From IMG/VR virus record IMGVR_UViG_3300021511_000005, positions 32,001 through 96,000 of that record: a stretch of DNA of 64,000 nucleotides. One strand, 5' to 3'. A program made the position numbers and the translations under genes. This document shows, in pieces, positions 1,368 through 49,333 of this stretch; the first letter of the stretch is position 1, and each line of letters starts with the position of its first letter. The notes below the pieces were generated by a model that saw nothing but the letters and a program-made list of their open reading frames with translations, ran no database searches and had not been told where the DNA came from. This DNA is from a virus.

Positions 1368-2773
1368 GCTTCCCCTTTGATTCAGAATTCCAGCGCAAGA
1401 TGATCAAGCTGGCTTTGGAGGATGACGGTTTCTGTTCCCAAGCCCTGAAGCACATTCAGCCGGGAATGTTTGAGTCCGACGGCCTGGCCTGGGCGTGGAA
1501 GATGATCCAACGGGAGCGGGAGGAGGGGCGTGCCCCGTCCATGCTGGTCTTGAAGGATCGACTTCGCGACGTCCAGCAAGTTCTCCAGCCGCGCTACTCG
1601 GCGCTGGTCCAGATGCTCGAGGCGGACCAGCTCCAGGAGGACCGCTTCATCCGTCATCGGCTTGCGGAGTTCATACAGCGCAACATGTTTGTGGCGGCTT
1701 TCGCGGACTCCAAGCGGCTCTACAACATGGAGCGGGTGGACGAGGCCATCGATTTGATGCGTGGTGAGTCTCAGAAGGCTGCCCAGATTACCTTCGATGC
1801 GCCGGACCGCGGGTGGTTCTTCCGGGAGCTGCAGGACCGCCAGCGGCTCCGCCGGCGGATGCAGGATCGGGCCTGGGAGTACACTTTTCCGACGGGGATC
1901 CACATCACGGACCAGGTCTTGGACGGCGGCCTGAGCCGCGGCGAATTGGGCACCTGGATCGCGGACAGCAAGGGTGGGAAATCTCTTTTCCTGGTCCATC
2001 TGGCACTCTATATCGCGCGGGCGCAGATGCAGCCCGTTTTGTTCTGCATCTTCGAGGGCAGCCGGCACCAGACGGAGAATCGGCTCGAGGCGTTGGCCGC
2101 GGGGATGTTCTACCGCGAGATCAAGCGTGGTGAGATCGATCCGGAGACCTTCGAGCGCATCATGGCGGAGTACCGCAGCCTGGCGAACAATCTGGTCACG
2201 CGCGGCTTCACCGACAGCTGGAATTACACCGGCGCCGATATCCGCGCGGAGTTGGACGACCTGCGGAGCCAGCACGGCTGGCGGCCGGTGGCGATCATCT
2301 GCGACTACGGCGACCTTTTGCGGAGCCAGGCCGGCCGCGTCAGCTCAGAGGAGCAGCATCAGAGGGACGCCTTCGGGGACTTGAAGACCATCACGACCCA
2401 GGACGACGGATATGCTCTGTGGACGGCGAGCCAGGCCAGGCGTCCATGGGAGGAGAAGGACGGCGACGACAAGAAGAAGGGTGGCAATAGGATTTGGGGA
2501 CAACGTGTGTTGCGCGCCAAGGATGTGGCCGACTCCTACAACAAGATCCGTCGGAGCGACTTTATCGGCAGCATCAATCAGTCGCCAGAGGAGAAGAAGA
2601 AGGGGGAGGCGCGGCTCTACCACGAGCTGTACCGAGACAACGCGGCCCACCGGATTTGCCGCATCAAGCAGGACCTGAATAAGATGGTCTTCGTTGACCT
2701 GCTGGACCCCTACAACCGGCCCGGCGCGCAGAACGACGGCGACCCGGAGAAGATCCCGGAGCTGGATATATGA
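1364..2773 (+). CDS. dnaB: replicative DNA helicase, DnaB/SF4 family
   Basis: 'FPTG..ITDQVLDGGLSRGEL', Walker A ADSKGGKS, Walker B IICDY, 'WTASQ'; adjacent to primase; GTG start at 1364 inferred. Confidence 0.9.
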   Translation: MSFPFDSEFQRKMIKLALEDDGFCSQALKHIQPGMFESDGLAWAWKMIQREREEGRAPSMLVLKDRLRDVQQVLQPRYSALVQMLEADQLQEDRFIRHRLAEFIQRNMFVAAFADSKRLYNMERVDEAIDLMRGESQKAAQITFDAPDRGWFFRELQDRQRLRRRMQDRAWEYTFPTGIHITDQVLDGGLSRGELGTWIADSKGGKSLFLVHLALYIARAQMQPVLFCIFEGSRHQTENRLEALAAGMFYREIKRGEIDPETFERIMAEYRSLANNLVTRGFTDSWNYTGADIRAELDDLRSQHGWRPVAIICDYGDLLRSQAGRVSSEEQHQRDAFGDLKTITTQDDGYALWTASQARRPWEEKDGDDKKKGGNRIWGQRVLRAKDVADSYNKIRRSDFIGSINQSPEEKKKGEARLYHELYRDNAAHRICRIKQDLNKMVFVDLLDPYNRPGAQNDGDPEKIPELDI

Positions 2774-3840
2774 CGGTTTGGTGGCAGGCGGAAGCCCGGT
2801 TTGACTGGGGCGAGTACGTCCGTAACAAGGGCGGGATGCGGTCGCTCCGGGGGCGCGCGGATGAGTACCTTTTGGCGTGCCCGGACTGCCATAAGCCCAA
2901 GCTGGCGGTGAACATCGCCCGGCGGAAGTGGCGCTGTTTCGTGTGCAGTGATGGCGGTCAAGACGCGGCAAGCTTGATCGCCAAGGTGGATCAGCTTCGC
3001 TTTGGGGACGCGTTGCTGCAGGTGATGACCGGCTATCGCGGCGCGGTGGGGCGGATCGATGTCATTGAACAGAGCCTCGACCCCCAGGACGATCGGCGGT
3101 TGGGCTGGATCCCCAAGCCCATTTCGTGGCCGGAGGGCTTCGTGTGGTTGGCTCCGTTCGACCGGCCCAACGGCGGGATGGTCCACCGGCGCGCCGTTCA
3201 ATATGCCATCGGTCGTGAGTGGCCAGAGTATGCGGCTGATGCTATGCGTTTGGGGGTCTGCGAGCGTGGGCGCTTTCGTGGACGGATCATCTTTCCGGCC
3301 TTTGATAGCGGGGACCGATTGATCTTCTTTCAGGGCCGGGCGACGTGGACCCCCGATCCACGGGAGCGCCATGTCAAGACGTTGAGTCCGCGGCGAGACG
3401 ATCCGGAGAATCAGGCCGGGCCGGCGGACTGCTTGCTCAATCTCCACACCGTTATGTCTCAGGGCTTCGACAGTGTGGCCTTGATTGAGGGTCCCACCGA
3501 TTGCATCAAGGCCTGGCCGGACGCGGTGGCGAGTTTCGGCAAGACGATCAGCGCTCGACAGATGGAGCTGTTGATTCGCGCGGGCGTCCGACGTGTGGAT
3601 ATCTGTTGGGACAACGATGTCATCCCGCCAGAGCAACGGGCTCGTGGGGTGATCAGCGGCTACGAGGCGGCGCTGAAGGTGGCGCCGACGATGACGGACC
3701 TGTTCGACGTTCGCGTGGTTTGTCTGCCCCTGGGGAAGGATCCGGGGGAGTTGACCAAGGAACAGCTCGAGGGGTATCGTGCTCACGCTCAGCGGTGGGG
3801 GCATGGCGACCGTTTGAGCCACATCCCGGATACGTTGTAG
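2770..3840 (+). CDS. dnaG: DNA primase, DnaG type
   Basis: N-terminal Zn finger CPDC...CFVC, 'RIIFP..FFQGR', TOPRIM 'IEGPTD', 'WDND', 'KDPGE'. Confidence 0.9.
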   Translation: MTVWWQAEARFDWGEYVRNKGGMRSLRGRADEYLLACPDCHKPKLAVNIARRKWRCFVCSDGGQDAASLIAKVDQLRFGDALLQVMTGYRGAVGRIDVIEQSLDPQDDRRLGWIPKPISWPEGFVWLAPFDRPNGGMVHRRAVQYAIGREWPEYAADAMRLGVCERGRFRGRIIFPAFDSGDRLIFFQGRATWTPDPRERHVKTLSPRRDDPENQAGPADCLLNLHTVMSQGFDSVALIEGPTDCIKAWPDAVASFGKTISARQMELLIRAGVRRVDICWDNDVIPPEQRARGVISGYEAALKVAPTMTDLFDVRVVCLPLGKDPGELTKEQLEGYRAHAQRWGHGDRLSHIPDTL

Positions 3841-3863
3841 CCCTTCGGGGCGGAGGAGGCGCA

Positions 3864-4346
3864 ATGCACGAGTGGTCAAGAGTCGTCTGGGCAGTCTTGA
3901 GACCCCGTTACCGAGCTGCGCGCAGGCTGGGGCTTCATCGTGACGAGCTGGAGAGCTTGGCGGGCATGGCCGCGGTTGAGGCGGAGCTGTCGTGGGTTCC
4001 CGATGGCGGCCGGAGCCTATCCAGCTGGGTCTACCTGTGCGTGGAGTTCGCGGTCAGGAAGCGATTGGCCAAGGTCGCACGGGAGTTTGCGGACGATGAG
4101 ATGGACGAGTGGGTGATGGACCCCGATGAAGGCCCGGAAGCCCGCGTGGTGGTTTCGGAGGCCCTGGTCTATCTTCAGGCCCGGCTCACCCAGGCTGAAT
4201 GGTGGCTGCTGTGGATGTATCACGGTGAAGGCTACAGCGCCAAAGAGTTGTCCAAGCAACTTGGCCTTGCATATGGGACAGTTAGGAACCAATTGTCCGC
4301 AGCCCGTCGGAACGCGATGACAATCCTGAACCACGCGGAAGGGTAA
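3864..4346 (+). CDS. phage-encoded sigma-70/ECF-like RNA polymerase sigma factor
   Basis: Region-2-like 'DELESLAGMAAVEA..W.PDGGRSLSSWVY' and region-4 HTH 'EGYSAKELSKQLGLAYGTVRNQLSAAR'; SD GGAGG. Confidence 0.75.
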   Translation: MHEWSRVVWAVLRPRYRAARRLGLHRDELESLAGMAAVEAELSWVPDGGRSLSSWVYLCVEFAVRKRLAKVAREFADDEMDEWVMDPDEGPEARVVVSEALVYLQARLTQAEWWLLWMYHGEGYSAKELSKQLGLAYGTVRNQLSAARRNAMTILNHAEG

Positions 4347-4350
4347 GGAT

Positions 4351-5295
4351 ATGAGCAACGAACCCCCAATTATCGATGATCCGGAGGACGAGGCGGAGGT
4401 GGACCCCGAGGAGCTGAAGCAGCTCCTGGGACAAGCCCACGACCTGGGACTCCACATCAACAGCCGGGATCCCATCGAGATCGCGGCCCTGGTGGCGCTG
4501 GCCCAGCAGGAACGCGGATCGGAGCATCCGGTTCCCTGCTACGGCCTGAGCTACGACCCGACAGACAGGCGCTGCCGTGTTTGTCAGCTCCGCACCAAGT
4601 GCGCAGAGCTGGACCAGTCGCCGCGGGTGGAGGTATCCGACCTGACCCAACTTCAGGCGGTCCCGTGTGATGTGTGCGGGGGGTCGCTGGAGGTCGAGCT
4701 ACTGGACCGAGAACACCAGGAGGTTCGGGACTACGGATGCACCACCACCGGCTGTGCCAACACGTTGGGTGTCCAGTGTGGGTGGGAGACTCGCGCGGCT
4801 GACGTGGTCCGGGACATTGTGTTGCCCAAGGATGAAGTGGCCGAAGCGGAGCCGGAGGACGATTCCGTCCCCCCCTCGGAGGTCCCCCCTCCGGCTCCGC
4901 CGAAGCCCTCCAAGAAGAAGGCCAAGAAGAAGGCCAAGAAGAAGGCCAAGAAGAAGGCCAAGAAGAAGCCGAAATCCGACGCTACGCCCGCTCCCAAGAA
5001 GAAGGTCCAGGTGAAGGTGAAGCGGAAGCCGACCAAGCCAGCCAAGAAGAAGGCCAGCAAGAAGAAGACGGTCACGGTGAAGCCCAAGGGCAACGGCAAG
5101 CCCACGGGGAAACTGGTCTACATCTATGACGGCGAGCCCTACAACACGTTGACCCCGATCGCTGTGGCCATCAGCGGAAGCCGAAACTGGAGCGGCAAGC
5201 GGTTCTTCCGGGTCAAGGGCGAGCTGGAAGCGGGGACCACCCTGGAGCGCGAGTGGGAAGGCCAGACCTACTCCGTCCGCGTCGAGAAGGAGTAG
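4351..5295 (+). CDS. Cys-rich, Lys-rich (histone H1-like) protein with C-terminal DUF2924/RAMA-like domain
   Basis: Two Cys clusters; (KKKA)4 tract; 'YIYDGEPYNTLTPIAVAISGSRNWSGKRFF' resembles the DUF2924 signature. Confidence 0.6.
   Translation: MSNEPPIIDDPEDEAEVDPEELKQLLGQAHDLGLHINSRDPIEIAALVALAQQERGSEHPVPCYGLSYDPTDRRCRVCQLRTKCAELDQSPRVEVSDLTQLQAVPCDVCGGSLEVELLDREHQEVRDYGCTTTGCANTLGVQCGWETRAADVVRDIVLPKDEVAEAEPEDDSVPPSEVPPPAPPKPSKKKAKKKAKKKAKKKAKKKPKSDATPAPKKKVQVKVKRKPTKPAKKKASKKKTVTVKPKGNGKPTGKLVYIYDGEPYNTLTPIAVAISGSRNWSGKRFFRVKGELEAGTTLEREWEGQTYSVRVEKE
4912..4968 (+). repeat. 12-nt tandem repeat AAGAAGAAGGCC x4.75 encoding KKKA
   Basis: Read directly from the sequence. Confidence 0.95.
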
Positions 5296-5298
5296 ATC

Positions 5299-5883
5299 AT
5301 GTACGAGGGCAACAACGGCCGGGTGGCAATCGCGATCCCGAGCTTCAACGACATCGTGTCTCGGATTGCCAAGTTCGAGACCTTCCAGGTGGCGGATCGG
5401 CTCTACAGCGCCGACTTGCTGATCCCCCAGCTCACCATCAGCGGTAAGGACCTGATCGCGGAGGCCGCGAGCTGCGCCGCGCTGATCCTCTACTGGGGCG
5501 TGGAGGCCGCGCGTGCGCGGCGTCACGTCGAGAGTGTGGAGGGCTCTTATCGCGGGTGGCGGGATCGGAAGTGGCTGGATCTGAAGTCCACGCCGATTGA
5601 CGACGGCAAGGGCGGGGTGAAGATCCCGTCTGATGCCGTGTGTGATAAGCAGTATCGCACTCACCCAGAGTATGGCGTCTGGCAGCAGCGGAAGGCCGCT
5701 GCTCAGGAGGCCGCCGAGTGTGCCGAAGCGGTCCACGAGGCGTTCAAGGCCAAGAAGGATCTGGTCAAGGTGATGGAAAATCTGATGCGTGACGAGGCCG
5801 GTGGCCCCTATTGGGTCTCGGAGCAACCGTCCGTTGAAGTCCCACGACAGCCCCAACTAGCAGGAGAACAGGCCAATGAGTAA
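5299..5883 (+). CDS. UvsY-like recombination mediator (putative)
   Basis: Helical protein with 'HPEY....RK..AQE...AVHEAFKAKKDL' C-terminal pattern; located just before SSB and RecA. Confidence 0.45.
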   Translation: MYEGNNGRVAIAIPSFNDIVSRIAKFETFQVADRLYSADLLIPQLTISGKDLIAEAASCAALILYWGVEAARARRHVESVEGSYRGWRDRKWLDLKSTPIDDGKGGVKIPSDAVCDKQYRTHPEYGVWQQRKAAAQEAAECAEAVHEAFKAKKDLVKVMENLMRDEAGGPYWVSEQPSVEVPRQPQLAGEQANE

Positions 5884-7441
5884 CGGAGATCCGTCCCAGA
5901 ACTATCCACAGCCGGGCCAGGGGCCGGGGGTCCACGGACATGCCCAAGCCGCACCGGACCCACAGCAAGGCTACCAGCAGCCGCAGGGTCAGCCGCAGGG
6001 TCAGCCGCAGGGTCAGCCGCAGGGTCAGCCGCAGTATCCCCAGGGGCCGCCACCGCAGGGCCAACAGGGGTATCCGCCCCAGCAGCCTCCGCCCCAGCAG
6101 CCCCAGCAGCCTCAGCCGTGGTTCGACCAGAATACGGGGCAGTGGGTTTATCCCCAGCAGCCTCCGCCCCGGCAGCCGCAGGGACCAGGGCCGTCGCAGC
6201 TCAGTCAGGCCGAGCTGGACGCCTTGAACGAGACTAAGCAGGAGCTGGACGATCGGACCAAGGACTTCGGGGACGTGGATTACTACAAGCCGAAGCAGCC
6301 CCAGTCCGTGGGTGACACGGTGGATAGCCTGGTCCGTCTGCTGCCGGCTTGGCCGGGCAAGGAGCAGACGGCTCAACCCGCCGGAATGTTCTGGAAGGAA
6401 TATGTTCACTTCATCTGGGTCCCGAGTCAGGAGGATCCGGGGAAGAATACCCGGATGGCCGTTCTCTGTGAGCGGGAGATGACGCCGGCGGGCTACGCGC
6501 CGGCGCCGTGTCCGGTCTGCGATCGGCGCGACTTGGCGGAGAAGGAAGGCGACCAGAAGATGGCTACGGCCCTGTCGGCGCGGCCGCGGTTCCTCTTTAA
6601 CGTGATCGACATGGAGGACAACAACCGTCACTGGAAGCAGGACAAGGCCACAGGGGCCTACACTTGCACCGCGGCGGTCGGCACCTTCGGGCCCGGGCTG
6701 ATGAAGAAGTTGATCAACATTTTCCATCAGCGTCAGAACATCGCGGACATGCGGTACGGTAAGAGCTTGGCCATCAGCACTAGCAAGGTGGGCAAGCAGC
6801 GACGGGATGTCCGTTACGACGCCTTGGACCACGGCGATCCGGGTCCCGTGCCTCAGGGGATGGAGAACATTATTCTGGTGGACCTGTCGCAGGTCACTCC
6901 CAAGAAGGACTACAACGAGGTGGCCGTGGCGATGAGGGTCACCTATCCGCCGCGGGACCAAGCTCCGCCGCCCCAGGGTTATCAGCAGCCTCAGGGTCCA
7001 CCGCCGCAGCAGGGCTATCAGCAGCCTCCGCCCCAACAGGGGCCACCGCCACAGCAAGGTTACCAGCAGCAGGGGCCGCCGCCGCAGCAGAGGCCACAGC
7101 CGCCCTACGGGAACCCCTATCCTCAGCAGGGCGGGCCGCCGCCGCAGCAAGGAGGCTATCAGCCTCCACAGCAGGGCCAGCAGCCTCAGCAGGCCGGCCC
7201 GCCGCCCCAGCAGCCTCAGCAGGCCGGCCCGCCGCCCCAGCAGGGATATCAGCCGCCTCAGCAGGCCGGCCCGCCACAGGGCCAGCCAGGGCCCCAGGGG
7301 GGCCCCCCGCCTCAGCAGGGCTATCAGCCCCCAGGAGGCTACGCCCAGCCGGCGGGGCCTCCTCAGCAGCAACAGCCACAGCAGGGGCAGCAGTCGGTCC
7401 CCTACGGTGAGCAGGGGCAGGATCCGGATGTCCCTTTCTAG
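5876..7441 (+). CDS. single-stranded DNA-binding protein, T4 gp32-like core with long Q/P/G low-complexity arms
   Basis: 'VRLLP', 'FWKEYVHF', 'CPVC', 'RFLFNVID' core; acidic SSB-Ct-like terminus DPDVPF; upstream of RecA. Confidence 0.75.
   Translation: MSNGDPSQNYPQPGQGPGVHGHAQAAPDPQQGYQQPQGQPQGQPQGQPQGQPQYPQGPPPQGQQGYPPQQPPPQQPQQPQPWFDQNTGQWVYPQQPPPRQPQGPGPSQLSQAELDALNETKQELDDRTKDFGDVDYYKPKQPQSVGDTVDSLVRLLPAWPGKEQTAQPAGMFWKEYVHFIWVPSQEDPGKNTRMAVLCEREMTPAGYAPAPCPVCDRRDLAEKEGDQKMATALSARPRFLFNVIDMEDNNRHWKQDKATGAYTCTAAVGTFGPGLMKKLINIFHQRQNIADMRYGKSLAISTSKVGKQRRDVRYDALDHGDPGPVPQGMENIILVDLSQVTPKKDYNEVAVAMRVTYPPRDQAPPPQGYQQPQGPPPQQGYQQPPPQQGPPPQQGYQQQGPPPQQRPQPPYGNPYPQQGGPPPQQGGYQPPQQGQQPQQAGPPPQQPQQAGPPPQQGYQPPQQAGPPQGQPGPQGGPPPQQGYQPPGGYAQPAGPPQQQQPQQGQQSVPYGEQGQDPDVPF
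5978..6034 (+). repeat. 12-nt tandem repeat CAGCCGCAGGGT x4.75 (QPQG)
   Basis: Read directly from the sequence. Confidence 0.95.
7178..7237 (+). repeat. 30-nt exact tandem duplication (QQPQQAGPPP x2)
   Basis: Read directly from the sequence. Confidence 0.9.
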
Positions 7442-7565
7442 GGGAGGGGTCTCCACGGCCACCCGTTGGCTCTGACGGGTGGCCGATTTGCCGCGGCCAC
7501 CATAACGACACGGATCGAACCTGCGGTCTGTGTGCCAGGTCGGAGGCGTGCAAGGTGGAGACCCC
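7432..7565 (+). promoter_or_regulatory. candidate -1 programmed ribosomal frameshift signal
   Basis: In-frame X XXY YYZ heptamer C CCT TTC (7432-7438); 7-nt spacer; stems 7446-7456/7555-7565 (11 bp) and 7457-7466/7475-7484 (10 bp). Confidence 0.7.
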
Positions 7566-7656
7566 GCCGGATGCGGGTCCGCCGCCCGTCCCCACAGAAC
7601 ACCCAGCCCAGGACCCCGAGGCCCTGGAACGCATGATGCGAGGTACCGATGGCTAA
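7438..7656 (+). CDS. -1-frame extension of SSB (72 codons, C-x10-C-x2-C-x5-C motif)
   Basis: Open frame with no ATG/GTG/TTG before its Cys motif; fills the SSB-recA gap; stop overlaps the recA start (ATGGCTAA). Confidence 0.6.
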   Translation, partial: LGEGSPRPPVGSDGWPICRGHHNDTDRTCGLCARSEACKVETPPDAGPPPVPTEHPAQDPEALERMMRGTDG

Positions 7657-8788
7657 GTCAGCCACCGCCCAGAAGAAGGCCACTAAGAAGACCACCAAGA
7701 AGGCCACCCCCAAGCGCAAGGGTGCGGGCAAGGTCAGTCCCAAGAAGCGGGCCACCCAGCTCCAGGTGATGGTGGAGGCCCGCGAGTTCCTGCAGCAGAA
7801 GCACGGCAAGGGTGCGGTTCGGATGATGAACGAGGTGGACAGTACCATCCCGGGCTATATCTCCACGCAGTCCTTGGCGTTGGACAAGCTCGTAGGCAAT
7901 GACGGGGTCCCGCAGAGTCGGATGATCGAGATCTACGGGCCGGAGGGGATCGGGAAGTCCACCATCAGCGATCATCTGATTGCCCAGGTCCAGAAGCTCG
8001 ACGGTGTGGCCTATCTGTGGGATACGGAGAACGCGCGGGACCACCGTTACATGGACCAGGTGGGCATCGTCCGCGGCCGCGCTATCCGCGTTGAGGCGGA
8101 CACGGTGGAGGCGGGTTACGCTATCGCTCAGGACACCATCGACTGGCATCTGGCCCATTACCCAGACCGGCTGGGGATCTGGGTCTGGGACACAGTGGCG
8201 GGAACGCCCACTGAAGCGGAGTTGGACCCCAGCAAGTCCAATGAACGCTTCGGGCCGGCGAAGATGATCCGCGGCATGTGCCGTGTGTTGACTCAGAGCC
8301 TCAAGAAGTCCCGCTGGATCTTCGTGGTGGTCAACCAGACCTATATCACGCAGAAGGGGCACTTCCCGGTAGTCAAGACCTACGGCGGTGAGGGGATCCC
8401 CTACTACAGCTCTGTTCGGCTTGAGTGCGGCTACCGGAGTCCGCAGTGGCGGACGACAACGTCCAAGGAGGCCGGCGAGGATCCGATTGGGCAGACCATC
8501 ATAGTCAAGTCGTCTAAGAACAAGACCTTTCCACCGTTGCGGTCAGAGAAGATCTACATCCGCTACGGCGAGGGCATCGATAACGTGTGGACGTTGTATG
8601 ACACGCTGTGTGGTGCCGGGATGATCACTCAGGCTGGGGGCTGGTACGAGCTGGACTGGCCGGAGGTGGCGGGCAAATACCCCAAGTGGCAGAGCGGCTA
8701 CGACGGGTTGAAGCAGCTCTGCTCGGAGAACGTGGATCTGTGGAGAGACGTGATTCTGGGCTATCAGGCGCTGGAGAAGAGGCGATGA
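7649..8788 (+). CDS. recA: RecA/UvsX recombinase with Lys-rich N-terminal extension
   Basis: 'ISTQSLALD..G..GVP..RMIEIYGPEGIGKS', 'WDTE', 'DTVA', 'VNQ', 'TYGG..IPYYSSVR', 'KNK'. Confidence 0.92.
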   Translation: MAKSATAQKKATKKTTKKATPKRKGAGKVSPKKRATQLQVMVEAREFLQQKHGKGAVRMMNEVDSTIPGYISTQSLALDKLVGNDGVPQSRMIEIYGPEGIGKSTISDHLIAQVQKLDGVAYLWDTENARDHRYMDQVGIVRGRAIRVEADTVEAGYAIAQDTIDWHLAHYPDRLGIWVWDTVAGTPTEAELDPSKSNERFGPAKMIRGMCRVLTQSLKKSRWIFVVVNQTYITQKGHFPVVKTYGGEGIPYYSSVRLECGYRSPQWRTTTSKEAGEDPIGQTIIVKSSKNKTFPPLRSEKIYIRYGEGIDNVWTLYDTLCGAGMITQAGGWYELDWPEVAGKYPKWQSGYDGLKQLCSENVDLWRDVILGYQALEKRR

Positions 8789-9420: not shown

Positions 9421-9734
9421 TGACAGATCGCCCCGATATCGTCAGAGAGCTAGTAGGCCCGCACCAGTCGTTGAACCTGATCCAGTCCGCGGTGGACGAT
9501 CTGAAGACCACGCTGGAGGCGTGTCCGAGCCAGGAGGACCCGTTGACCAGCCCCGTCTACAGAACCTGGGACCGTCGCGTCTGCATGAAGTTGGGTGCGG
9601 CTTTCGGCCATATACGCCATGCCCAGGCCTGCGGGCACATCACACCGGACGTCTACCACAAGATTTATCTTGAGCTGCTGGGCATCACGACGCGCCAGGC
9701 CGCGGCCGTGGAGATGGGGCTCCAGAAGCCATGA
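9420..9734 (+). CDS. hypothetical protein
   Basis: Coupled ORF in operon, GC3-rich codons. Confidence 0.6.
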   Translation: MTDRPDIVRELVGPHQSLNLIQSAVDDLKTTLEACPSQEDPLTSPVYRTWDRRVCMKLGAAFGHIRHAQACGHITPDVYHKIYLELLGITTRQAAAVEMGLQKP

Positions 9735-9874
9735 AGTGGTTGGCAAGGATAGCTCCCCTATTCATCGGGGCTGGGGCGGTCTTACTCTGGAGCGCCAACG
9801 GCCGGTGGTGGCTTTTGTTGCCGGGCGTGGTTTTGTTCGCGGCCGGGTTGGCCGTTAGTCAGGCGCGTCCATGA
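9731..9874 (+). CDS. small membrane protein (47 aa, two hydrophobic segments)
   Basis: MKWLARIAPLFIGAGAVLLWSANGRWWLLLPGVVLFAAGLAVSQARP; ATGA overlaps at both ends. Confidence 0.55.
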   Translation: MKWLARIAPLFIGAGAVLLWSANGRWWLLLPGVVLFAAGLAVSQARP

Positions 9875-10182
9875 GTCGTGGTTGGTCTGTCAACCTGTCC
9901 CTGGTGGGTCAGTCCCAGGAGATCGACTTGCCCGCTCCCCCGTTGTTCCAGACGAGCGTGGGGCCAGTGGTGGAGCTGGTCTTCTGGAGCCTGTTGGTGG
10001 AGCGCTGGATGCACGCGGTCAGTGAGCATTTCGAACGCGAGCTGCCATTGGGTCACGTTCAGGTGACCTACGGCGATTTGACCTGGATTCGCCGGGTGGC
10101 GGCTCGATCGGGTATCGAGGGTTTGCGGGAGTGCGTTTCCGATTTGGAGGAGTTCCAGCTCCCGAGCAAGGGGGAGGGATGA
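9871..10182 (+). CDS. hypothetical protein
   Basis: ATGA-coupled ORF. Confidence 0.55.
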   Translation: MSRGWSVNLSLVGQSQEIDLPAPPLFQTSVGPVVELVFWSLLVERWMHAVSEHFERELPLGHVQVTYGDLTWIRRVAARSGIEGLRECVSDLEEFQLPSKGEG

Positions 10183-10433: not shown

Positions 10434-12489
10434 GCGCAGACCCAAGCCCGGAGCCATGGGCCACATATTCGACCAGGACGTGGACTGGGAGGTGGTCCAG
10501 GACGGCGATCGGCTGGAGAAGGCGCTCCGCGAATTGGAGGATCAGAAGTTTATCGGTTGGGACACGGAGGGCACAGGCCTATCAACTTTCAGGGGGGCGC
10601 GGATCATTGGTCATAGCTTCGCTTGGAGGCAGTCTAACCAGCGGATGAAGGCGATCTATATTCCGATTCGGCATGAGTCGGAGCGAATTGGGCTGTCTCT
10701 CTTCAATGACGAGACCAATATGGACGCGGCTGCGGTTACTGAGGCGTTGAAGCCCGTCTTGGAGGACCAAAGCACCATGAAGGCGGCCCATCACGCCCGG
10801 CATGACATCCACATGGCCCATGCCGATGGTATCAAGCCGGCCGGACGATTCACGGACACGGTTATCGCGTGCAAACTGATAGATGAGACCTGGCATAACC
10901 ACCAGCTCGAGACGTGCCTCAGTAAGGCGAAGTTGCCTCACGATCCCGACTGGAAGAGCACGATGACCGGCGAAGTTGAGCGAGTGGCCAAGCTGATGAA
11001 GCAGGGGCCCAAGGCGCACAAGGAGGAGCACGGTTACAAGTTCGGCTCGATTGGCGTGGTGGGGCGCTACGCTTGTCAGGACGCGGCCTACGAGCTGCGG
11101 TTGGCTGAATGGGCACTGCCTCAAGTAGAGAGCAAGTGGCCGGACATCTGGCGGATGGAGTCGGAGCTGCTGTGGGTCGTGCTGGATATGGAGCGCAAGG
11201 GGGTCCCCATTGATCCAGACAAGCTCCGCCGATTGTCGGAGGTGGCCTTCAAGGAACAGGCGCATCTGGCCCCGCAGGTCTGGGGCGCGGCAGGCTTCGA
11301 GTTCGACCTGGGCAACGATAACGCTGTCCGTGAAGCCCTATTCGAGCGGCTGGGCTTTCCGGTTCTGGGGACGACCAAGCACAAGACCCCCCAGGTGGAT
11401 GACGATACGCTGTGGAAGCTCGAGCTGGGGATCCGCGTCGAGGACAAGGACAAGGAGCGGGTTCGGAAGCTGGTCAAGCCCTTGCGGGAGTGGCGCGACT
11501 TCCAGAAGATCAAGACCACCTACACCTTGGGCTTGATCGAGCTGGCCGACGCCAACAGCATCCTTCATGCTGAGCTGGACCAGGGCGGTGCCAAGACTGG
11601 CCGTCTGTCCTGCCGCAACCCCAACCTTCAGAACATCCCGGTCCGGACCAAGCTGGGTCGCCGCGTCCGCGAGGCTTTCCACGCGCGGGAGGGGATGGTC
11701 CGCTACTGCCTGGACTATTCCCAGGTGGAGCTGCGGGTCTTGGCCCACTTGACCAAGGATCCGCTGTTGCTCAAGGTGTACCGCGAGGGGCTGGACGCCC
11801 ACGCCACCACGGCTATCGAGGCCTTCGGCACGTCGGGCAAGGTCGGAGGCGTGGACATGCGGAAGATCGCCAAGATTCTTAACTTCGGGACCAGCTTCTG
11901 CATGACCGAGGTGGGGCTGATGGGCAACGTCAACAAGGACCTACCCGAGGGCGTCCCGTGGATCACCGAGAACAAGGCCAAGGACTTCCAGGCACGGTTC
12001 TACGCCAAGTACAGCTCCATCATCGGATTCCGTGAGTACCTGTGGCGCTGTGTCGAAGCGCACCCCCAGCATTACTTCGAGAATCTGTACAAGCGGCCGC
12101 GGCGGATGGGGCGGGGCTTTGACTTCGGTGCGCCGAAGTGGGTCCGTCGGATGGTGGAGCGACAGACGATTGCGTCCATGGTCCAGGGCTCCGCGGCGGA
12201 CATGATCAAGTTTTCGATGGTCGAGACGTGGAAGTATCTCAAGTCCCAGCAGGACTGTGAGGCGGACATGGTCCTGATGGTTCACGACGATCTGCAATTC
12301 GATATGATGCCCCGCGGCTCTGCCAAGGTGATCCGGGAGATCAAGGCCATCATGGAGGACACGGGTGTCCGCGAGCTGAAGCGGATCAGCGGAAAGGACT
12401 TCGCGGTCCCGGTGGTGGTGGACGTCGAATACTTCGCGAGTCCGGACGGCAACTGGGCCCACAAGCACAAAATGGAACTTGGAGGATAA
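10426..12489 (+). CDS. polA: family A DNA polymerase (3'-5' exonuclease + polymerase, no 5' nuclease)
   Basis: ExoI DTE, ExoIII YACQD, 'TGRLS..NPNLQNIP', motif A DYSQVELR, motif B RKIAKILNFG, motif C VHDD. Confidence 0.95.
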   Translation: MAKRRPKPGAMGHIFDQDVDWEVVQDGDRLEKALRELEDQKFIGWDTEGTGLSTFRGARIIGHSFAWRQSNQRMKAIYIPIRHESERIGLSLFNDETNMDAAAVTEALKPVLEDQSTMKAAHHARHDIHMAHADGIKPAGRFTDTVIACKLIDETWHNHQLETCLSKAKLPHDPDWKSTMTGEVERVAKLMKQGPKAHKEEHGYKFGSIGVVGRYACQDAAYELRLAEWALPQVESKWPDIWRMESELLWVVLDMERKGVPIDPDKLRRLSEVAFKEQAHLAPQVWGAAGFEFDLGNDNAVREALFERLGFPVLGTTKHKTPQVDDDTLWKLELGIRVEDKDKERVRKLVKPLREWRDFQKIKTTYTLGLIELADANSILHAELDQGGAKTGRLSCRNPNLQNIPVRTKLGRRVREAFHAREGMVRYCLDYSQVELRVLAHLTKDPLLLKVYREGLDAHATTAIEAFGTSGKVGGVDMRKIAKILNFGTSFCMTEVGLMGNVNKDLPEGVPWITENKAKDFQARFYAKYSSIIGFREYLWRCVEAHPQHYFENLYKRPRRMGRGFDFGAPKWVRRMVERQTIASMVQGSAADMIKFSMVETWKYLKSQQDCEADMVLMVHDDLQFDMMPRGSAKVIREIKAIMEDTGVRELKRISGKDFAVPVVVDVEYFASPDGNWAHKHKMELGG

Positions 12490-31921: not shown

Positions 31922-32551
31922 GTGATGTGGAGCTGGATGAAGGCGAGTCCCTGGACCTTCGCTGTCGGTGGTTTGATTGCTGTTTTGGCGGTGGGTGGTG
32001 TTATCTACGCATTGGCGACTCACAAGAGGCGGATGGCCGCGCGGGACAAAGGGCTGATGATTCGTGATGGTCACCGACTTCGCTGGAAGCGGGAGGACTT
32101 GCCCCTGGGGGTCTGGTTCCATCCGGGCCTTGCTGACGAGCTGCTGGAGGCCTGGAAGGGTGCCACGGCGTTGTTCGAGCAGGCCGTGGGGCGGCCGCTG
32201 TTCATGATCCCGCTGATGGCCCCTAATGACCTGGACCTGGACAAGCCGCCGCGGGGGAACGTGGTCCTGAAGACGACAGACCCCCAGGGCGATATGTCGA
32301 GCGACCATGGACGGACGGAGCACCGCTACGACAAGCGGGACGGTTACTTGATCAGCGCCATTGTGTCGTTGCCCTGGGTTCCGCGGACCGGGCTCCACCG
32401 GCATGTGGCGGTCCACGAGATTGGTCATGTCTTGGGTCTGGACCATGACGATGTGACGTCGTCCATCATGTTCCCAACGTTGAGCTTGCGGAGGACGCCG
32501 GGGACGCTGTCCGATCTGGACGCGCAGAGGCTCAAGGATATCTATGGTTAA
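31922..32551 (+). CDS. membrane-anchored matrixin (metzincin) metalloprotease
   Basis: N-terminal TM helix; HEIGHVLGLDH zinc motif; Met-turn SIMFP. Confidence 0.85.
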   Translation: MMWSWMKASPWTFAVGGLIAVLAVGGVIYALATHKRRMAARDKGLMIRDGHRLRWKREDLPLGVWFHPGLADELLEAWKGATALFEQAVGRPLFMIPLMAPNDLDLDKPPRGNVVLKTTDPQGDMSSDHGRTEHRYDKRDGYLISAIVSLPWVPRTGLHRHVAVHEIGHVLGLDHDDVTSSIMFPTLSLRRTPGTLSDLDAQRLKDIYG

Positions 32552-45862: not shown

Positions 45863-46672
45863 ATGCACCAGCTCCGCCTTGCCATCGAGCCCCTGGACGA
45901 CACCCGGCCCATTCCGACCTGCCAGGATGGAACCGGGCCCATCTGCCCCTGGTGCGGGGAGGAGCGTTTCCTGGATGTCCTGGAGTACTGGCCGGAGGAG
46001 CGGGCGTGGATGTTCGATACCTGCTGTGAGGGCTCCCATCAGGATGCCTGTGAGCACGCCGCCCAGGACCCCCGGGGCTTCGGTCGTTGGTTTGAGGGCG
46101 TGACTGGTTGCTACGTCCGTCAGGGTTACCAGAGTACGGTGGAGCCCGACTTTCTCCGCCTGGACTTCGGTTTGACCGTGGGGCCGGTGAAGCAGGCGGA
46201 CGCCAAGGCCTTCATCAGCGAGCATCACCGCCACAACAACGCACCGGCCGGCTGGAAGTGGGGTTTGGGCTGCTACAACGGCCACGAGCTAATCGCAGTC
46301 CTGTGGGTCGGTCGTCCGGTGGCGCGGAAGCTGGACCACACCAAGATCGTCGAGGTCAACCGCTTGTGTGTGAATCCCGACCTGGACCCGGAGCTGGTGT
46401 GGAACGCTTGCTCGAAGCTCTACGCTGAGGCGGCCCGGGAGGCCAAGACTCGGCGCTACGACAGGGCCATCACCTACACCCTGGCGAGCGAGTCCGGCGG
46501 GACCCTGGTGGCTGCGGGCTGGACCCCGACGCACCGCACCGAGGGAGGAAGCTGGGATCGCCCGAGCCGAGCCCGCACCGACAAGGCCCCGACTTGCCAG
46601 AAGATCCGTTGGGAGAAGGGTTGCAACAAGCGCGCCCGTAAGGACATCGCCAAGCGGGCCATCACCCTGTAA
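45863..46672 (+). CDS. XF1762/Mom-like GNAT-fold putative DNA-modification protein
   Basis: 'AKAFISEHHRH', 'VGRPVAR.LD', 'EVNRLC', 'NACSKLY', 'ITYTL.SESG..L.AAGW'. Confidence 0.75.
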   Translation: MHQLRLAIEPLDDTRPIPTCQDGTGPICPWCGEERFLDVLEYWPEERAWMFDTCCEGSHQDACEHAAQDPRGFGRWFEGVTGCYVRQGYQSTVEPDFLRLDFGLTVGPVKQADAKAFISEHHRHNNAPAGWKWGLGCYNGHELIAVLWVGRPVARKLDHTKIVEVNRLCVNPDLDPELVWNACSKLYAEAAREAKTRRYDRAITYTLASESGGTLVAAGWTPTHRTEGGSWDRPSRARTDKAPTCQKIRWEKGCNKRARKDIAKRAITL

Positions 46673-46709: not shown

Positions 46710-47420
46710 ATGCCCGCCAAGCCCAAGATGGTCAGGTTCAACGAGCTGGCCGGGATCCCCTGCTACTACGCGAGGGTCAACGCGGCCTATGGGGACCTGG
46801 CGAGGACCACGAGCAGAACCGACAAGGGACGTATGCGGAGTTTGGCGCCGAGCTTCAAGGCCCGGATGGATGCCTGCATCGCGGAGATCTACTGGCTGAC
46901 CTACGGGCTGCTGGGGCCCTTGCAGGCCATCACCAGCGGTGGCGCCTATGTGAACAAGCCGGGCTGGCATCGTAAGGGCAAGGCCTACGATCTGGGCGGG
47001 CTTCACTGGCCGGAGCGGAAGCTGGTCCTGATTCAGACCGCCTCCGCGCGGAAGCTGGGTGAAGACTGGAATTGGCATCTGTATTTGGCCGTGGAAGCCG
47101 CGATCCGGCGGCACTTTGGGACCGTCTTGGGAATCCTCCACAACCGCCAACATTGGAATCATTACCATATTGATCCGGGGACCAAGGTGGGCTTCTGGAC
47201 CGAGGGCTTCGGAGCTACCACCAGGATCACCTTCCTCCAGGCCGTGTTGAAGGACATCTGGGGTCACTACGTCGGCAAGCTGGACGGGGACTACGGTCCC
47301 AAGTCCAAGGCGGCCGTGGCGGCCGTCCGAAAGGAGCTGGCCCTGGGCCCCCTCGAGAACCCCACGGCCTGGAGTCAGTTTCTGCTTCTGACCGCGATGT
47401 CGGGGATTCAGCATGGGTAA
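46710..47420 (+). CDS. putative endolysin: M15/extensin-like zinc peptidase + peptidoglycan-binding domain
   Basis: H-x6-D 'HRKGKAYD', 'HWNHYHID'; PG-binding 'LQAVL...GKLDGDYGPKSKAAV'. Confidence 0.7.
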   Translation: MPAKPKMVRFNELAGIPCYYARVNAAYGDLARTTSRTDKGRMRSLAPSFKARMDACIAEIYWLTYGLLGPLQAITSGGAYVNKPGWHRKGKAYDLGGLHWPERKLVLIQTASARKLGEDWNWHLYLAVEAAIRRHFGTVLGILHNRQHWNHYHIDPGTKVGFWTEGFGATTRITFLQAVLKDIWGHYVGKLDGDYGPKSKAAVAAVRKELALGPLENPTAWSQFLLLTAMSGIQHG

Positions 47421-47982
47421 GAGCTGGACTGATGACCTGAGCCGTTACCAGGACCTGGCGCGGCAAATCGAGCCCGCGATTCGATTGACCACGAAGGACG
47501 GGTGGTTCTGGCGGGCGTTGGCGGTTGTGGTTCACGGTGTCACATTCGGGGGGACCACGCGGACAGAGTTCCTCGAGGACTACGGGACGACGATCGGGCC
47601 GGTGATGGCCAATCCTCGACGTTGGCCGCGGCTTGGTGAGGGCTACATTGTCCACGAGGGGACCCACGCCGCGGACATGCGGAAGGCTGGTTTGGGTATC
47701 CATCCGTGGGTCGGGTTGTTGTTCTACGGCCTGGTCTACCTGTTGGTGTTCTTCCCCTTTCTTTTGGCCTATGGGCGGTACAAGCTCGAGCTGCGAGCGG
47801 ACGTGGCCCGTTGGCGTCACGAGCTGAAGCAGGGATTGAGGTCTCCGGATCAGCTCCGCGCGCACGCTGAGCGCCGGGGGAAGTCGCTCAAGGGGGGAGC
47901 CTACGCCTTCGCTTGGCTGTGGGCCCGCAAGGGGTACGCGAGCCGCGTGGAGGCGGTGATCGAGGAGATCGGTCATGTCTGA
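47413..47982 (+). CDS. membrane-associated HExxH protein
   Basis: 'IVHEGTH', hydrophobic segment, 'YKLELRA'. Confidence 0.55.
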   Translation: MGKSWTDDLSRYQDLARQIEPAIRLTTKDGWFWRALAVVVHGVTFGGTTRTEFLEDYGTTIGPVMANPRRWPRLGEGYIVHEGTHAADMRKAGLGIHPWVGLLFYGLVYLLVFFPFLLAYGRYKLELRADVARWRHELKQGLRSPDQLRAHAERRGKSLKGGAYAFAWLWARKGYASRVEAVIEEIGHV

Positions 47983-48877: not shown

Positions 48878-49333
48878 ATGACCACCCTGATCATCACGGC
48901 GATCCTGTGGTTGGCGCCTCAGGTGGAGCCGGCGGACGCGAAGCTCTACGCGACTCATATTCAGCGAGAGGCCACCCGCTGGGACCTGGACCCCCTGCTG
49001 GTGCTGGCGGTGATCAAGCGGGAGTCCGGCTTCAACCCCAGGGCCAGGTCCAAGACGTCCGACTATGGCCTGATGCAGGTCCATGTCTCCAAGACGACCT
49101 ACTCCGGCTACCTCCATCATCCGGAACGACTCTACAACCCCAAGCTCAACATCCGTTTGGGGATCCGCCTGATGGCCATCTGGAGGGACTACCACGCCGG
49201 CCGATGTGAGGGTCAGCATCCGTTCTGGGCCCACTTCAAGTACGGCAAACGGATCCCGCGCAAGCGCAAGGGCAAGAAGGTGGACGCTATCTACCGGGAG
49301 CTGGTGGCCAAGTTCCGCAGTTCGGGGGTTTGA
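48878..49333 (+). CDS. lytic transglycosylase (SLT domain)
   Basis: 'LDPLLVLAVIKRESGFNPRA.S..DYGLMQV...LYNPKLNIRLG'. Confidence 0.85.
   Translation: MTTLIITAILWLAPQVEPADAKLYATHIQREATRWDLDPLLVLAVIKRESGFNPRARSKTSDYGLMQVHVSKTTYSGYLHHPERLYNPKLNIRLGIRLMAIWRDYHAGRCEGQHPFWAHFKYGKRIPRKRKGKKVDAIYRELVAKFRSSGV

Follow-up and report, generated by a model that had tools for sequence, protein, structure and literature searches.

The DNA analyzed here is a 64,000-nt window, positions 32,001 to 96,000 of the 109,478-bp IMG/VR virus record IMGVR_UViG_3300021511_000005 from an uncultured phage. Our subject is the junction between its gene for a single-stranded DNA-binding protein (SSB) and the recA gene that follows, at which an initial annotation made from the sequence had proposed a programmed -1 frameshift yielding two SSB isoforms. 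Coordinates below are those of the window unless another locus is named. The SSB open reading frame (ORF) occupies positions 5876–7441 in the ORF list (+ strand, 0 frame, 521 aa), and a RecA/UvsX-like recombinase gene lies at 7649–8788 (+; Pfam RecA, E 2e-34; phrog_97, E 1.5e-50). The interval between the two is spanned by a -1 frame extension (7438–7656, +) that comprises 72 codons and a TAA stop and is missing from the automatic ORF calls, as had been noted before.

The SSB gene and its Pro-Phe tip

Against PHROGs, the SSB of the window falls at E 6e-8 into phrog_1192, a family named 'single strand DNA binding protein', and a Pfam search with it gave no match. The same family is matched by the SSBs of a syntenic phage locus, L012 (E 9e-8), and of the more distant loci L005 (E 2e-34) and L009 (E 9e-14), as well as by P0002 (E 7e-9), the closest SSB protein in the databases (48% identity), which comes from a third assembly. 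The cores of these proteins align via a Cys/His zinc motif, C...PCP[VI]C, and an ARPRFxxNVxD signature. As judged from these alignments, the gene upstream of the junction is a gp32-like SSB whose core is set between long P/Q/G/Y low-complexity arms.

The 0 frame of the SSB gene ends GAT GTC CCT TTC TAG and the protein ends ...GQDPDVPF; the TAG (7439–7441, +) terminates the short isoform, whose C-terminal Phe is thus left free. An acidic stretch that ends in Pro-Phe-COOH is the hallmark of the interaction tip of bacterial SSBs, and such ends were found in the window (DPDVPF), in L012 (GGDDVPF) and in P0002 (DPNAPPF), in which the stop falls right after the homologous DPxxPF tip. Termination immediately after the Phe is conserved in these three independent sequences. 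The likeness to the E. coli SSB tip (...DDDIPF) extends to the acidic stretch leading to Pro-Phe-COOH and to its position behind a long disordered linker, whereas the proteins differ in that bacterial SSB is an OB-fold tetramer and the DNA-binding core in the window is gp32-like.

Low-complexity P/Q/G/Y stretches make up about half of the SSB (encoded at 5876–6200 and 6950–7400 in the window and at 9558–9960 and 10700–11060 in L012), and the arms contain exact tandem repeats, with GGTCAGCCGCAG present four times near 5990–6040 and QGYPQ seven times in L012. The contigs of two further loci, L013 and L014, stop ~230–250 nt past the SSB core, within the low-complexity tail. The SSB repeats probably break short-read assemblies, thereby hiding relatives.

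Slippery heptamer and downstream RNA structure

The Pro and Phe codons of the SSB tip form a slippery heptamer, C CCU UUC (7432–7438, +), directly ahead of the TAG and in the X XXY YYZ phase that had been claimed for it: C CCT TTC begins at codon position 3 of the 0 frame, so that both tRNAs can re-pair. By the decoding rules, tRNA-Pro on CCU and tRNA-Phe on UUC re-pair cognately on CCC and UUU. Heptamers of the type H_HH.U_UU.Y, including C_CC.U_UU.C, were among the most efficient in E. coli when a stimulator was given (Sharma et al. 2014, PMC4066793). By itself, an in-phase heptamer at a gene end is weak evidence, as it is not rare: 84 in-phase heptamers were counted in the 30,801 codons of 98 called genes, from which ~0.27 genes are expected to end on one. 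The sequence CCCTTTC occurs less often in the window than expected (3 copies vs 10.4).

A weak Shine-Dalgarno (SD)-like element, AGGAT (7419–7423, +), lies 9 nt upstream of the heptamer, and aligned with it in L012 is a strong SD-like GGAGGTGAT (11052–11060 of that locus), 9–10 nt upstream of the L012 heptamer. By analogy with the frameshift site of E. coli dnaX, this element may be a third stimulator that acts from upstream.

Downstream, a predicted multi-branch RNA structure of ~120 nt (7443–7568, +), the putative frameshift stimulator, begins 4–7 nt after the heptamer. The 11-bp outer stem that had been described seven nt beyond the heptamer (7446–7456 with 7555–7565, +) was recovered and, when counted from 7443, extends to 14 nt with 93% complementarity; it encloses an inner hairpin plus a second branched domain. 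The inner hairpin, given earlier as 10 bp at 7457–7466/7475–7484, has 11 bp (7456–7466 with 7475–7485, +; arms CGGCCACCCGU with ACGGGUGGCCG) and lies over the codons for PPVGSDGWP. The 125-nt segment starting at 7446 folds at -76.5 kcal/mol, which ranks it first among 5468 segments of the 109-kb genome (mean -46.5, standard deviation 7.0), and the same fold has a GC-corrected z of -4.7 and a z of -4.3 against shuffles. Searches of the site for an Rfam family, a terminator or a promoter found none.

The -1 frame extension and its Cys4 module

The -1 frame is closed by a TGA at 7408–7410, is open from 7411 to 7653 and ends with a TAA at 7654–7656, reading ...CPF LGEGSPRPPVGSDGWPICRGHHNDTDRTCGLCARSEACK...MMRGTDG*. 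The closure at 7408 and the lack of a start codon before the Cys motif, both asserted previously, were borne out by reading of the ORFs: no ATG, GTG or TTG occurs in this frame before the GTG at 7555, and the sole near-cognate codon is the ATT at 7486. The predicted product of a shift at the heptamer has the junction ...DVPF-LGEGSPR... and a length of 521 + 72 = 593 residues. Its TAA lies inside ATGGCTAA at the start of recA (ATG at 7649), with an overlap of 8 nt. Overlaps of this form, ATGnnTRR, were found at five other junctions of this genome, in keeping with the earlier remark that the extension stops like other coupled genes here; since the overlap is recurrent, the extension ends as real genes in the genome do.

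Within the extension is a Cys4 motif of the form C-x10-C-x2-C-x5-C (CRGHHNDTDRTCGLCARSEAC; 7489–7551, +), of which the four Cys plus one Gly are invariant in the alignment of five sequences (alignment A3). The module had been said to recur in two neighboring genes, and this held for one of them, the gene for a Cys-rich DUF2924 protein (4351–5295, +), which carries a paralogous module at 4537–4602 with the same motif, GSxxPxC[YF]G...DPTDRRCxxCxxxxxC. A second neighbor with the module was not found; the SSB core has a zinc motif too, but one of another kind. The sharing of Cys4 with the DUF2924 protein may point to a common partner or to self-association. In its spacing, CX2CX5C is reminiscent of [4Fe-4S] motifs such as those of Endo III/MutY and AddB/Cas4, a resemblance which we take to be a lead only, and the extension module may bind a metal, either zinc or Fe-S. 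Comparison of the extension with Pfam, PHROGs, solved structures (PDB) and the Atlas gave no match, and its AlphaFold model (pLDDT 60) is too poor for a structure search.

A HMMER scan that covered 1.84 billion representative proteins identified P0003 (117 aa, JGI), the only homolog of the extension in the protein databases, which is 51% identical to it over extension residues 5–70 (E 1.3e-4) and has a common end point with it. As a separate observation, residues 1–46 of P0003 hold four WDGxxW[LW][YC] repeats that are like the GQWV motifs of the SSB arms (PWFDQNTGQWVY in the window and GWMQDPATGQWV in P0002).

Conservation of the frame break in a second phage

The relative that proved decisive, L012, was located by using its DUF2924-family neighbor as a marker and belongs to a viral contig of 113,207 bp that was assembled from another metagenome. 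L012 is syntenic with the window, with identities of 48% for the gene that begins at 4351, 49% for that at 5299, 41% for the SSB (residues 133–521) and 48–50% for recA. The extension is present as well, with an identity of 48% by tblastn (E 2e-11) and of 52% at the amino acid level when aligned codon by codon. A tBLASTn check of relatives for a conserved heptamer had been proposed in the initial annotation, and L012 gives it a clear answer: its SSB gene ends GGT GAT GAT GTC CCT TTC TAG GGG A, with the heptamer, its phase and the TAG as in the window. In the DNA alignment of the two phages (alignment A5) a 19-nt block, GATGTCCCTTTCTAGGGGA (7427–7445, +), is identical, though the flanking third codon positions have diverged to an identity of 0.30–0.46, which means that all four synonymous sites in the block, and the identity of the stop codon, have been frozen. 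The -1 frame of L012 also has a TGA two codons ahead of the heptamer, and because this stop is so near, any frame change is confined to ~10 nt, that is, to the heptamer itself.

The same comparison indicates that the -1 frame evolves as a protein. Nucleotide identity at codon positions 1/2/3 is 0.60/0.64/0.30 for the extension (0.59/0.68/0.46 for recA), a pattern that is a coding signature, and of the nine frame pairs across the gap between SSB and recA only -1/-1 aligns, with a score of 131 vs at most 30 for the other eight. Homology with P0003 and L012 begins at LG[ED]GS/P[RK]PPV, in L012 with the first codons past the slip site; conservation therefore begins upstream of the ATT at 7486, which cannot be a start. 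The L012 extension has the C-terminus ...DPEELERQLRG, its TGA stop overlaps the ATG of recA, and there is no ATG, GTG or TTG in it before its Cys4 motif.

The L012 heptamer is followed, after 5 nt, by an irregular hairpin of ~26 bp. Its apical 9-bp stem (CCCCCGGUU with GGCCGGGGG) differs in sequence from the inner hairpin of the window and lies over codons that are homologous to those of that hairpin. The 70-nt segment after the heptamer folds at -38.9 kcal/mol, one of the two lowest energies in the 1642 segments of the locus (mean -20.8, standard deviation 4.6).

A probable programmed -1 frameshift and its alternatives

In combination, the heptamer, the RNA structure and the conservation in L012 are not explained by chance. 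We put at roughly 0.85 the probability that the C CCU UUC site directs a programmed -1 frameshift that gives SSB isoforms of 521 and 593 aa, as the initial annotation had suggested; the decisive support comes through L012, from the heptamer, its phase, the stop, the RNA structure after it and the coding pattern of the -1 frame, and the in-frame Cys4 modules of L005 and L009 and the PF end of P0002 add to it.

In the mechanism we propose, a fraction of the ribosomes would slip back by one base while tRNA-Pro and tRNA-Phe occupy CCU UUC, the last two sense codons, and both tRNAs would then re-pair on CCC UUU. The highly stable fold that begins a few nt further on would promote the slip, and the adjacent UAG and the weak SD-like element upstream may add to it. 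Ribosomes that do not slip would terminate at the UAG and release the 521-aa SSB with its free acidic ...DPDVPF tip, whereas those that slip would read on through CUA GGG..., add 72 residues with the Cys4 module and stop 8 nt inside recA, giving the 593-aa form in which PF is internal. The same product could arise by an alternative route, in which the P-site tRNA-Phe slips on U UUC during the slow decoding of a UAG in the A site, and the conserved TAG is compatible with either route. The long form would mask the PF tip, and the two forms may bind different partners. As to recA, it has its own GAGG upstream and so need not depend on the frameshift, although the conserved overlap of stop and start would be compatible with some coupling between frameshifting and recA translation.

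Several observations weigh against a programmed frameshift. The RNA structures of L012 and the window are built differently, and for the full L012 region of 172 nt the z against shuffles is only -1.4. L012 is the single relative for which there is DNA, and two sequences are too few for formal stem covariation; the consensus returned by RNAalifold for the two was uninformative, with the hairpins out of register. The base composition of the extension by codon position is atypical, including that of third positions (GC3): 0.74/0.63/0.71 vs ~0.62/0.43/0.83 for the genome, a deviation that may be explained by the overlapping RNA structure. The GTG at 7555 is preceded by a good GGAGG 7 nt upstream, which makes a separate product of 33 aa, without the Cys4 motif, conceivable. 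Finally, P0003 begins with Met and in its own phage may be a free-standing gene or an in-frame version, such as a 5'-truncated SSB-Cys4 fusion, or else an out-of-frame read-through of an SSB tail.

The last of these points bears on the possibility that the extension is a separate small gene, translated by non-canonical initiation (e.g., at ATT 7486) or by reinitiation after the UAG. The annotation of P0003 as a 117-aa protein starting with Met would fit with this, as would a free-standing 84-aa Cys-rich ORF before recA in another locus, L007, and the GGGGAGGGG stretch after the stop. However, neither phage has an ATG, GTG or TTG in frame ahead of Cys4, protein conservation runs from the first codon past the slip site, upstream of the ATT, and reinitiation has no need of the frozen synonymous positions of the heptamer within the 19-nt identical block. 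The occurrence of the extension as a separate ATG gene in relatives, which had been named in advance as a result that would speak against a frameshift, is not what L012 has. We consider a separate gene unlikely.

It is also quite improbable that the -1 ORF is what remains, in decay, of a Cys4 domain once encoded in frame and that the RNA structure serves mRNA processing or stability, or the control of recA translation. The weak GC3 of the extension is in line with decay, the large multi-branched structure exceeds the needs of a minimal stimulator, and by a rough estimate an open frame of ~80 codons has a ~10% chance of occurring at this GC content. Against this, the extension is as conserved between the two phages (52% identity) as recA even though third-position identity is down to 0.30, all four Cys and the C-terminal DPExLERxxRG have been kept, and the -1 frames of both phages are open up to the start of recA.

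An assembly or sequencing indel, by which the true gene would be an in-frame SSB-Cys4 fusion and the stop after PF would result from one missing base in CCC or TTT, is scarcely credible, since, although in-frame fusions exist in the distant relatives L005 and L009 and the site holds two 3-nt homopolymers, L012, from another metagenome and with about half of its positions different, breaks frame in precisely the same way at the same heptamer, P0002 (a third assembly) likewise terminates immediately after its homologous PF, and the genome elsewhere has long intact ORFs, the longest reaching 1816 aa; the conserved PF stop together with the shared frame break in two independent assemblies excludes both an assembly indel and a constitutive fusion. 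Two other candidates for the frame change were rejected: transcriptional slippage, as there is no long homopolymer at the site, and stop-codon readthrough, which would give the wrong frame.

Relation to known frameshift systems

Among the closest counterparts to a programmed frameshift in the SSB gene is that of E. coli dnaX, in which a programmed -1 frameshift produces the tau and gamma proteins. Both cases concern a replication protein, with an X XXY YYZ heptamer, a stem-loop (~6 nt downstream in dnaX) and an SD-like element upstream, and in both the two isoforms differ in a C-terminal region for partner binding. The gene families are unrelated, however, and the heptamers differ (A AAA AAG in dnaX, C CCU UUC here). 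Frameshifting in dnaX yields the shorter protein, as the ribosome meets a stop almost immediately, whereas in the SSB gene it would yield the longer one, and the SSB shift site is made up of the final two sense codons, next to the 0-frame stop. Other counterparts are the 3'-terminal -1 frameshifts of T7 gene 10A/10B, the major head protein of Lactobacillus phage A2, the capsid and tail genes of Listeria phage PSA and the lambda-type tail chaperone genes G/GT, in which, owing to a -1 slip near the end of an ORF with a stem-loop downstream, a set proportion of the molecules gains an extra C-terminal domain. The products of those genes are virion or assembly proteins, whereas the window encodes a replication/recombination protein whose functional C-terminal tip would be buried by the slip.

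Frameshifting is textbook knowledge in phages for tail chaperones and some capsid proteins, and in bacterial replication for dnaX. Full-text literature searches that combined frameshifting with phage SSB found no published case, the PRFect paper mentions no phage SSB case, and the part of the large recoding review PMC5009743 that was accessible holds no SSB case. What we propose is that an established mechanism operates in a class of genes new to it, and the twist is that the shift site is the interaction tip itself. If true, the mechanism extends to a protein that organizes replication and recombination, and a single slip would toggle the best-known interaction element of SSBs, the C-terminal Pro-Phe, between an exposed and a buried state. 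The division of partners between SSB forms would thereby become open to direct testing, and the predicted extended form is a product that automatic annotation overlooks.

Cys4 modules in the wider SSB family

More distant loci were found through recA, and two of them have SSB genes directly upstream of recA that encode a Cys4 module in frame at the extreme C-terminus: L005 (SSB at 3271–4617 of that locus, ...KKPVCFGEAEDYDAKDATCKACAFKAAC...) and L009 (SSB at 2405–3670, ...WQCFGTIDPEHPECKSCESRVAC...). A third case of an in-frame C-terminal module, in L027, is weaker. The L005 and L009 proteins resemble the long form predicted for the window in being phrog_1192 SSBs with C-[FY]-G...C-x2-C-x5-C at the C-terminus before recA. 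They differ from it in that their fusions are constitutive, without a PF tip or a frameshift, and their cores are only 18–22% identical to that of the window SSB. Profile comparisons of the extension with the L005 and L009 modules were modest (E 1e-3 and 1e-2), and the position of the module, its motif and the family of its host protein agree across L005, L009 and the window. On these sequences, a C-terminal Cys4 is a recurring theme of this SSB family, which the lineage of the window and L012 would acquire by a change of frame, and the comparison defines a new Cys4 module on the SSBs of several phage lineages.

A more general form of this idea is that SSB-to-Cys4 recoding is a general and hitherto unrecognized route by which phages obtain two SSB forms from one gene, with the free-PF form engaging SSB-interacting proteins and the PF-buried form, through a metal module shared with the DUF2924 neighbor, engaging the phage replication and recombination machinery. 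Unrelated lineages would then use different slippery signals, that of the window being C CCU UUC with a large stem-loop, and others a fixed in-frame fusion. We regard this generalization as tentative and rather doubtful.

Further searches widened the family little. Viral contigs scanned with the SSB core gave nothing, as did genome contigs scanned with P0002 or with a profile of the extension, and viral and metagenome contigs scanned with P0003. Scanning of the viral contigs with the extension profile returned L012 only, and the scans with the L005 and L009 SSBs each returned the query itself only. By blastn, deposited phages gave only low-complexity matches, and a two-sequence profile used to seek longer fused forms found none.

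The recA homolog of L009 (3738–5924 of that locus) encodes 728 aa. An intein-like insert of ~350 aa appears from the sequence to split it immediately behind the P-loop (GPESGGK|CHAKGT...VQHN|T).

The replication module and other features of the window

The record has a GC content of 64% and is tiled by coding-like ORFs, every one of them on the + strand. The SSB and recA genes belong to a replication module that starts with genes for a DnaB-like helicase (1202–2773, +) and a primase (2770–3840, +), continues with the DUF2924 gene, in which the DUF2924 domain is C-terminal, and with a gene of unknown type (5299–5883, +) that lies between the DUF2924 gene and the SSB gene, and includes a DNA polymerase gene further along, beyond that for RecA/UvsX. 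An ORF of 281 aa (3501–4346) overlaps the 3' end of the primase gene and fills the gap between 3840 and 4351, and the C-terminal part of its product resembles the helix-turn-helix of sigma-70 region 4 (...ELSKQLGLAYGTVRNQLSAARRNA...), a likeness seen in the sequence.

The DUF2924 proteins form a family with a common layout: an N-terminal helix region, the Cys4 motif HPVPC[YF]GLSYDPTDRRCR[VI]CQLRxKC, a Cys cluster (CxxC...C....C), a Lys-rich linker and the C-terminal DUF2924 domain. Besides the protein of the window (4351–5295), its members are P0006, P0008–P0011 and the products of L012 (7971–8996 of that locus), L013 (3581–4597) and L014. Genes of this family always lie two genes upstream of the SSB gene.

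Elsewhere in the window, the gene at 47413–47982, which has no family match, contains an in-phase G GGG GGA heptamer at 47892–47898, 27 codons before its stop. A -1 frame of 165 codons is open at this heptamer, and a strong fold (-35 kcal/mol for 60 nt) lies downstream; the terminase gene begins at 49330. This heptamer could be another recoding site, or a chance occurrence in GC-rich DNA. A Mom-like DNA modification protein is encoded at 45863–46672 (phrog_1384, E 3e-28).

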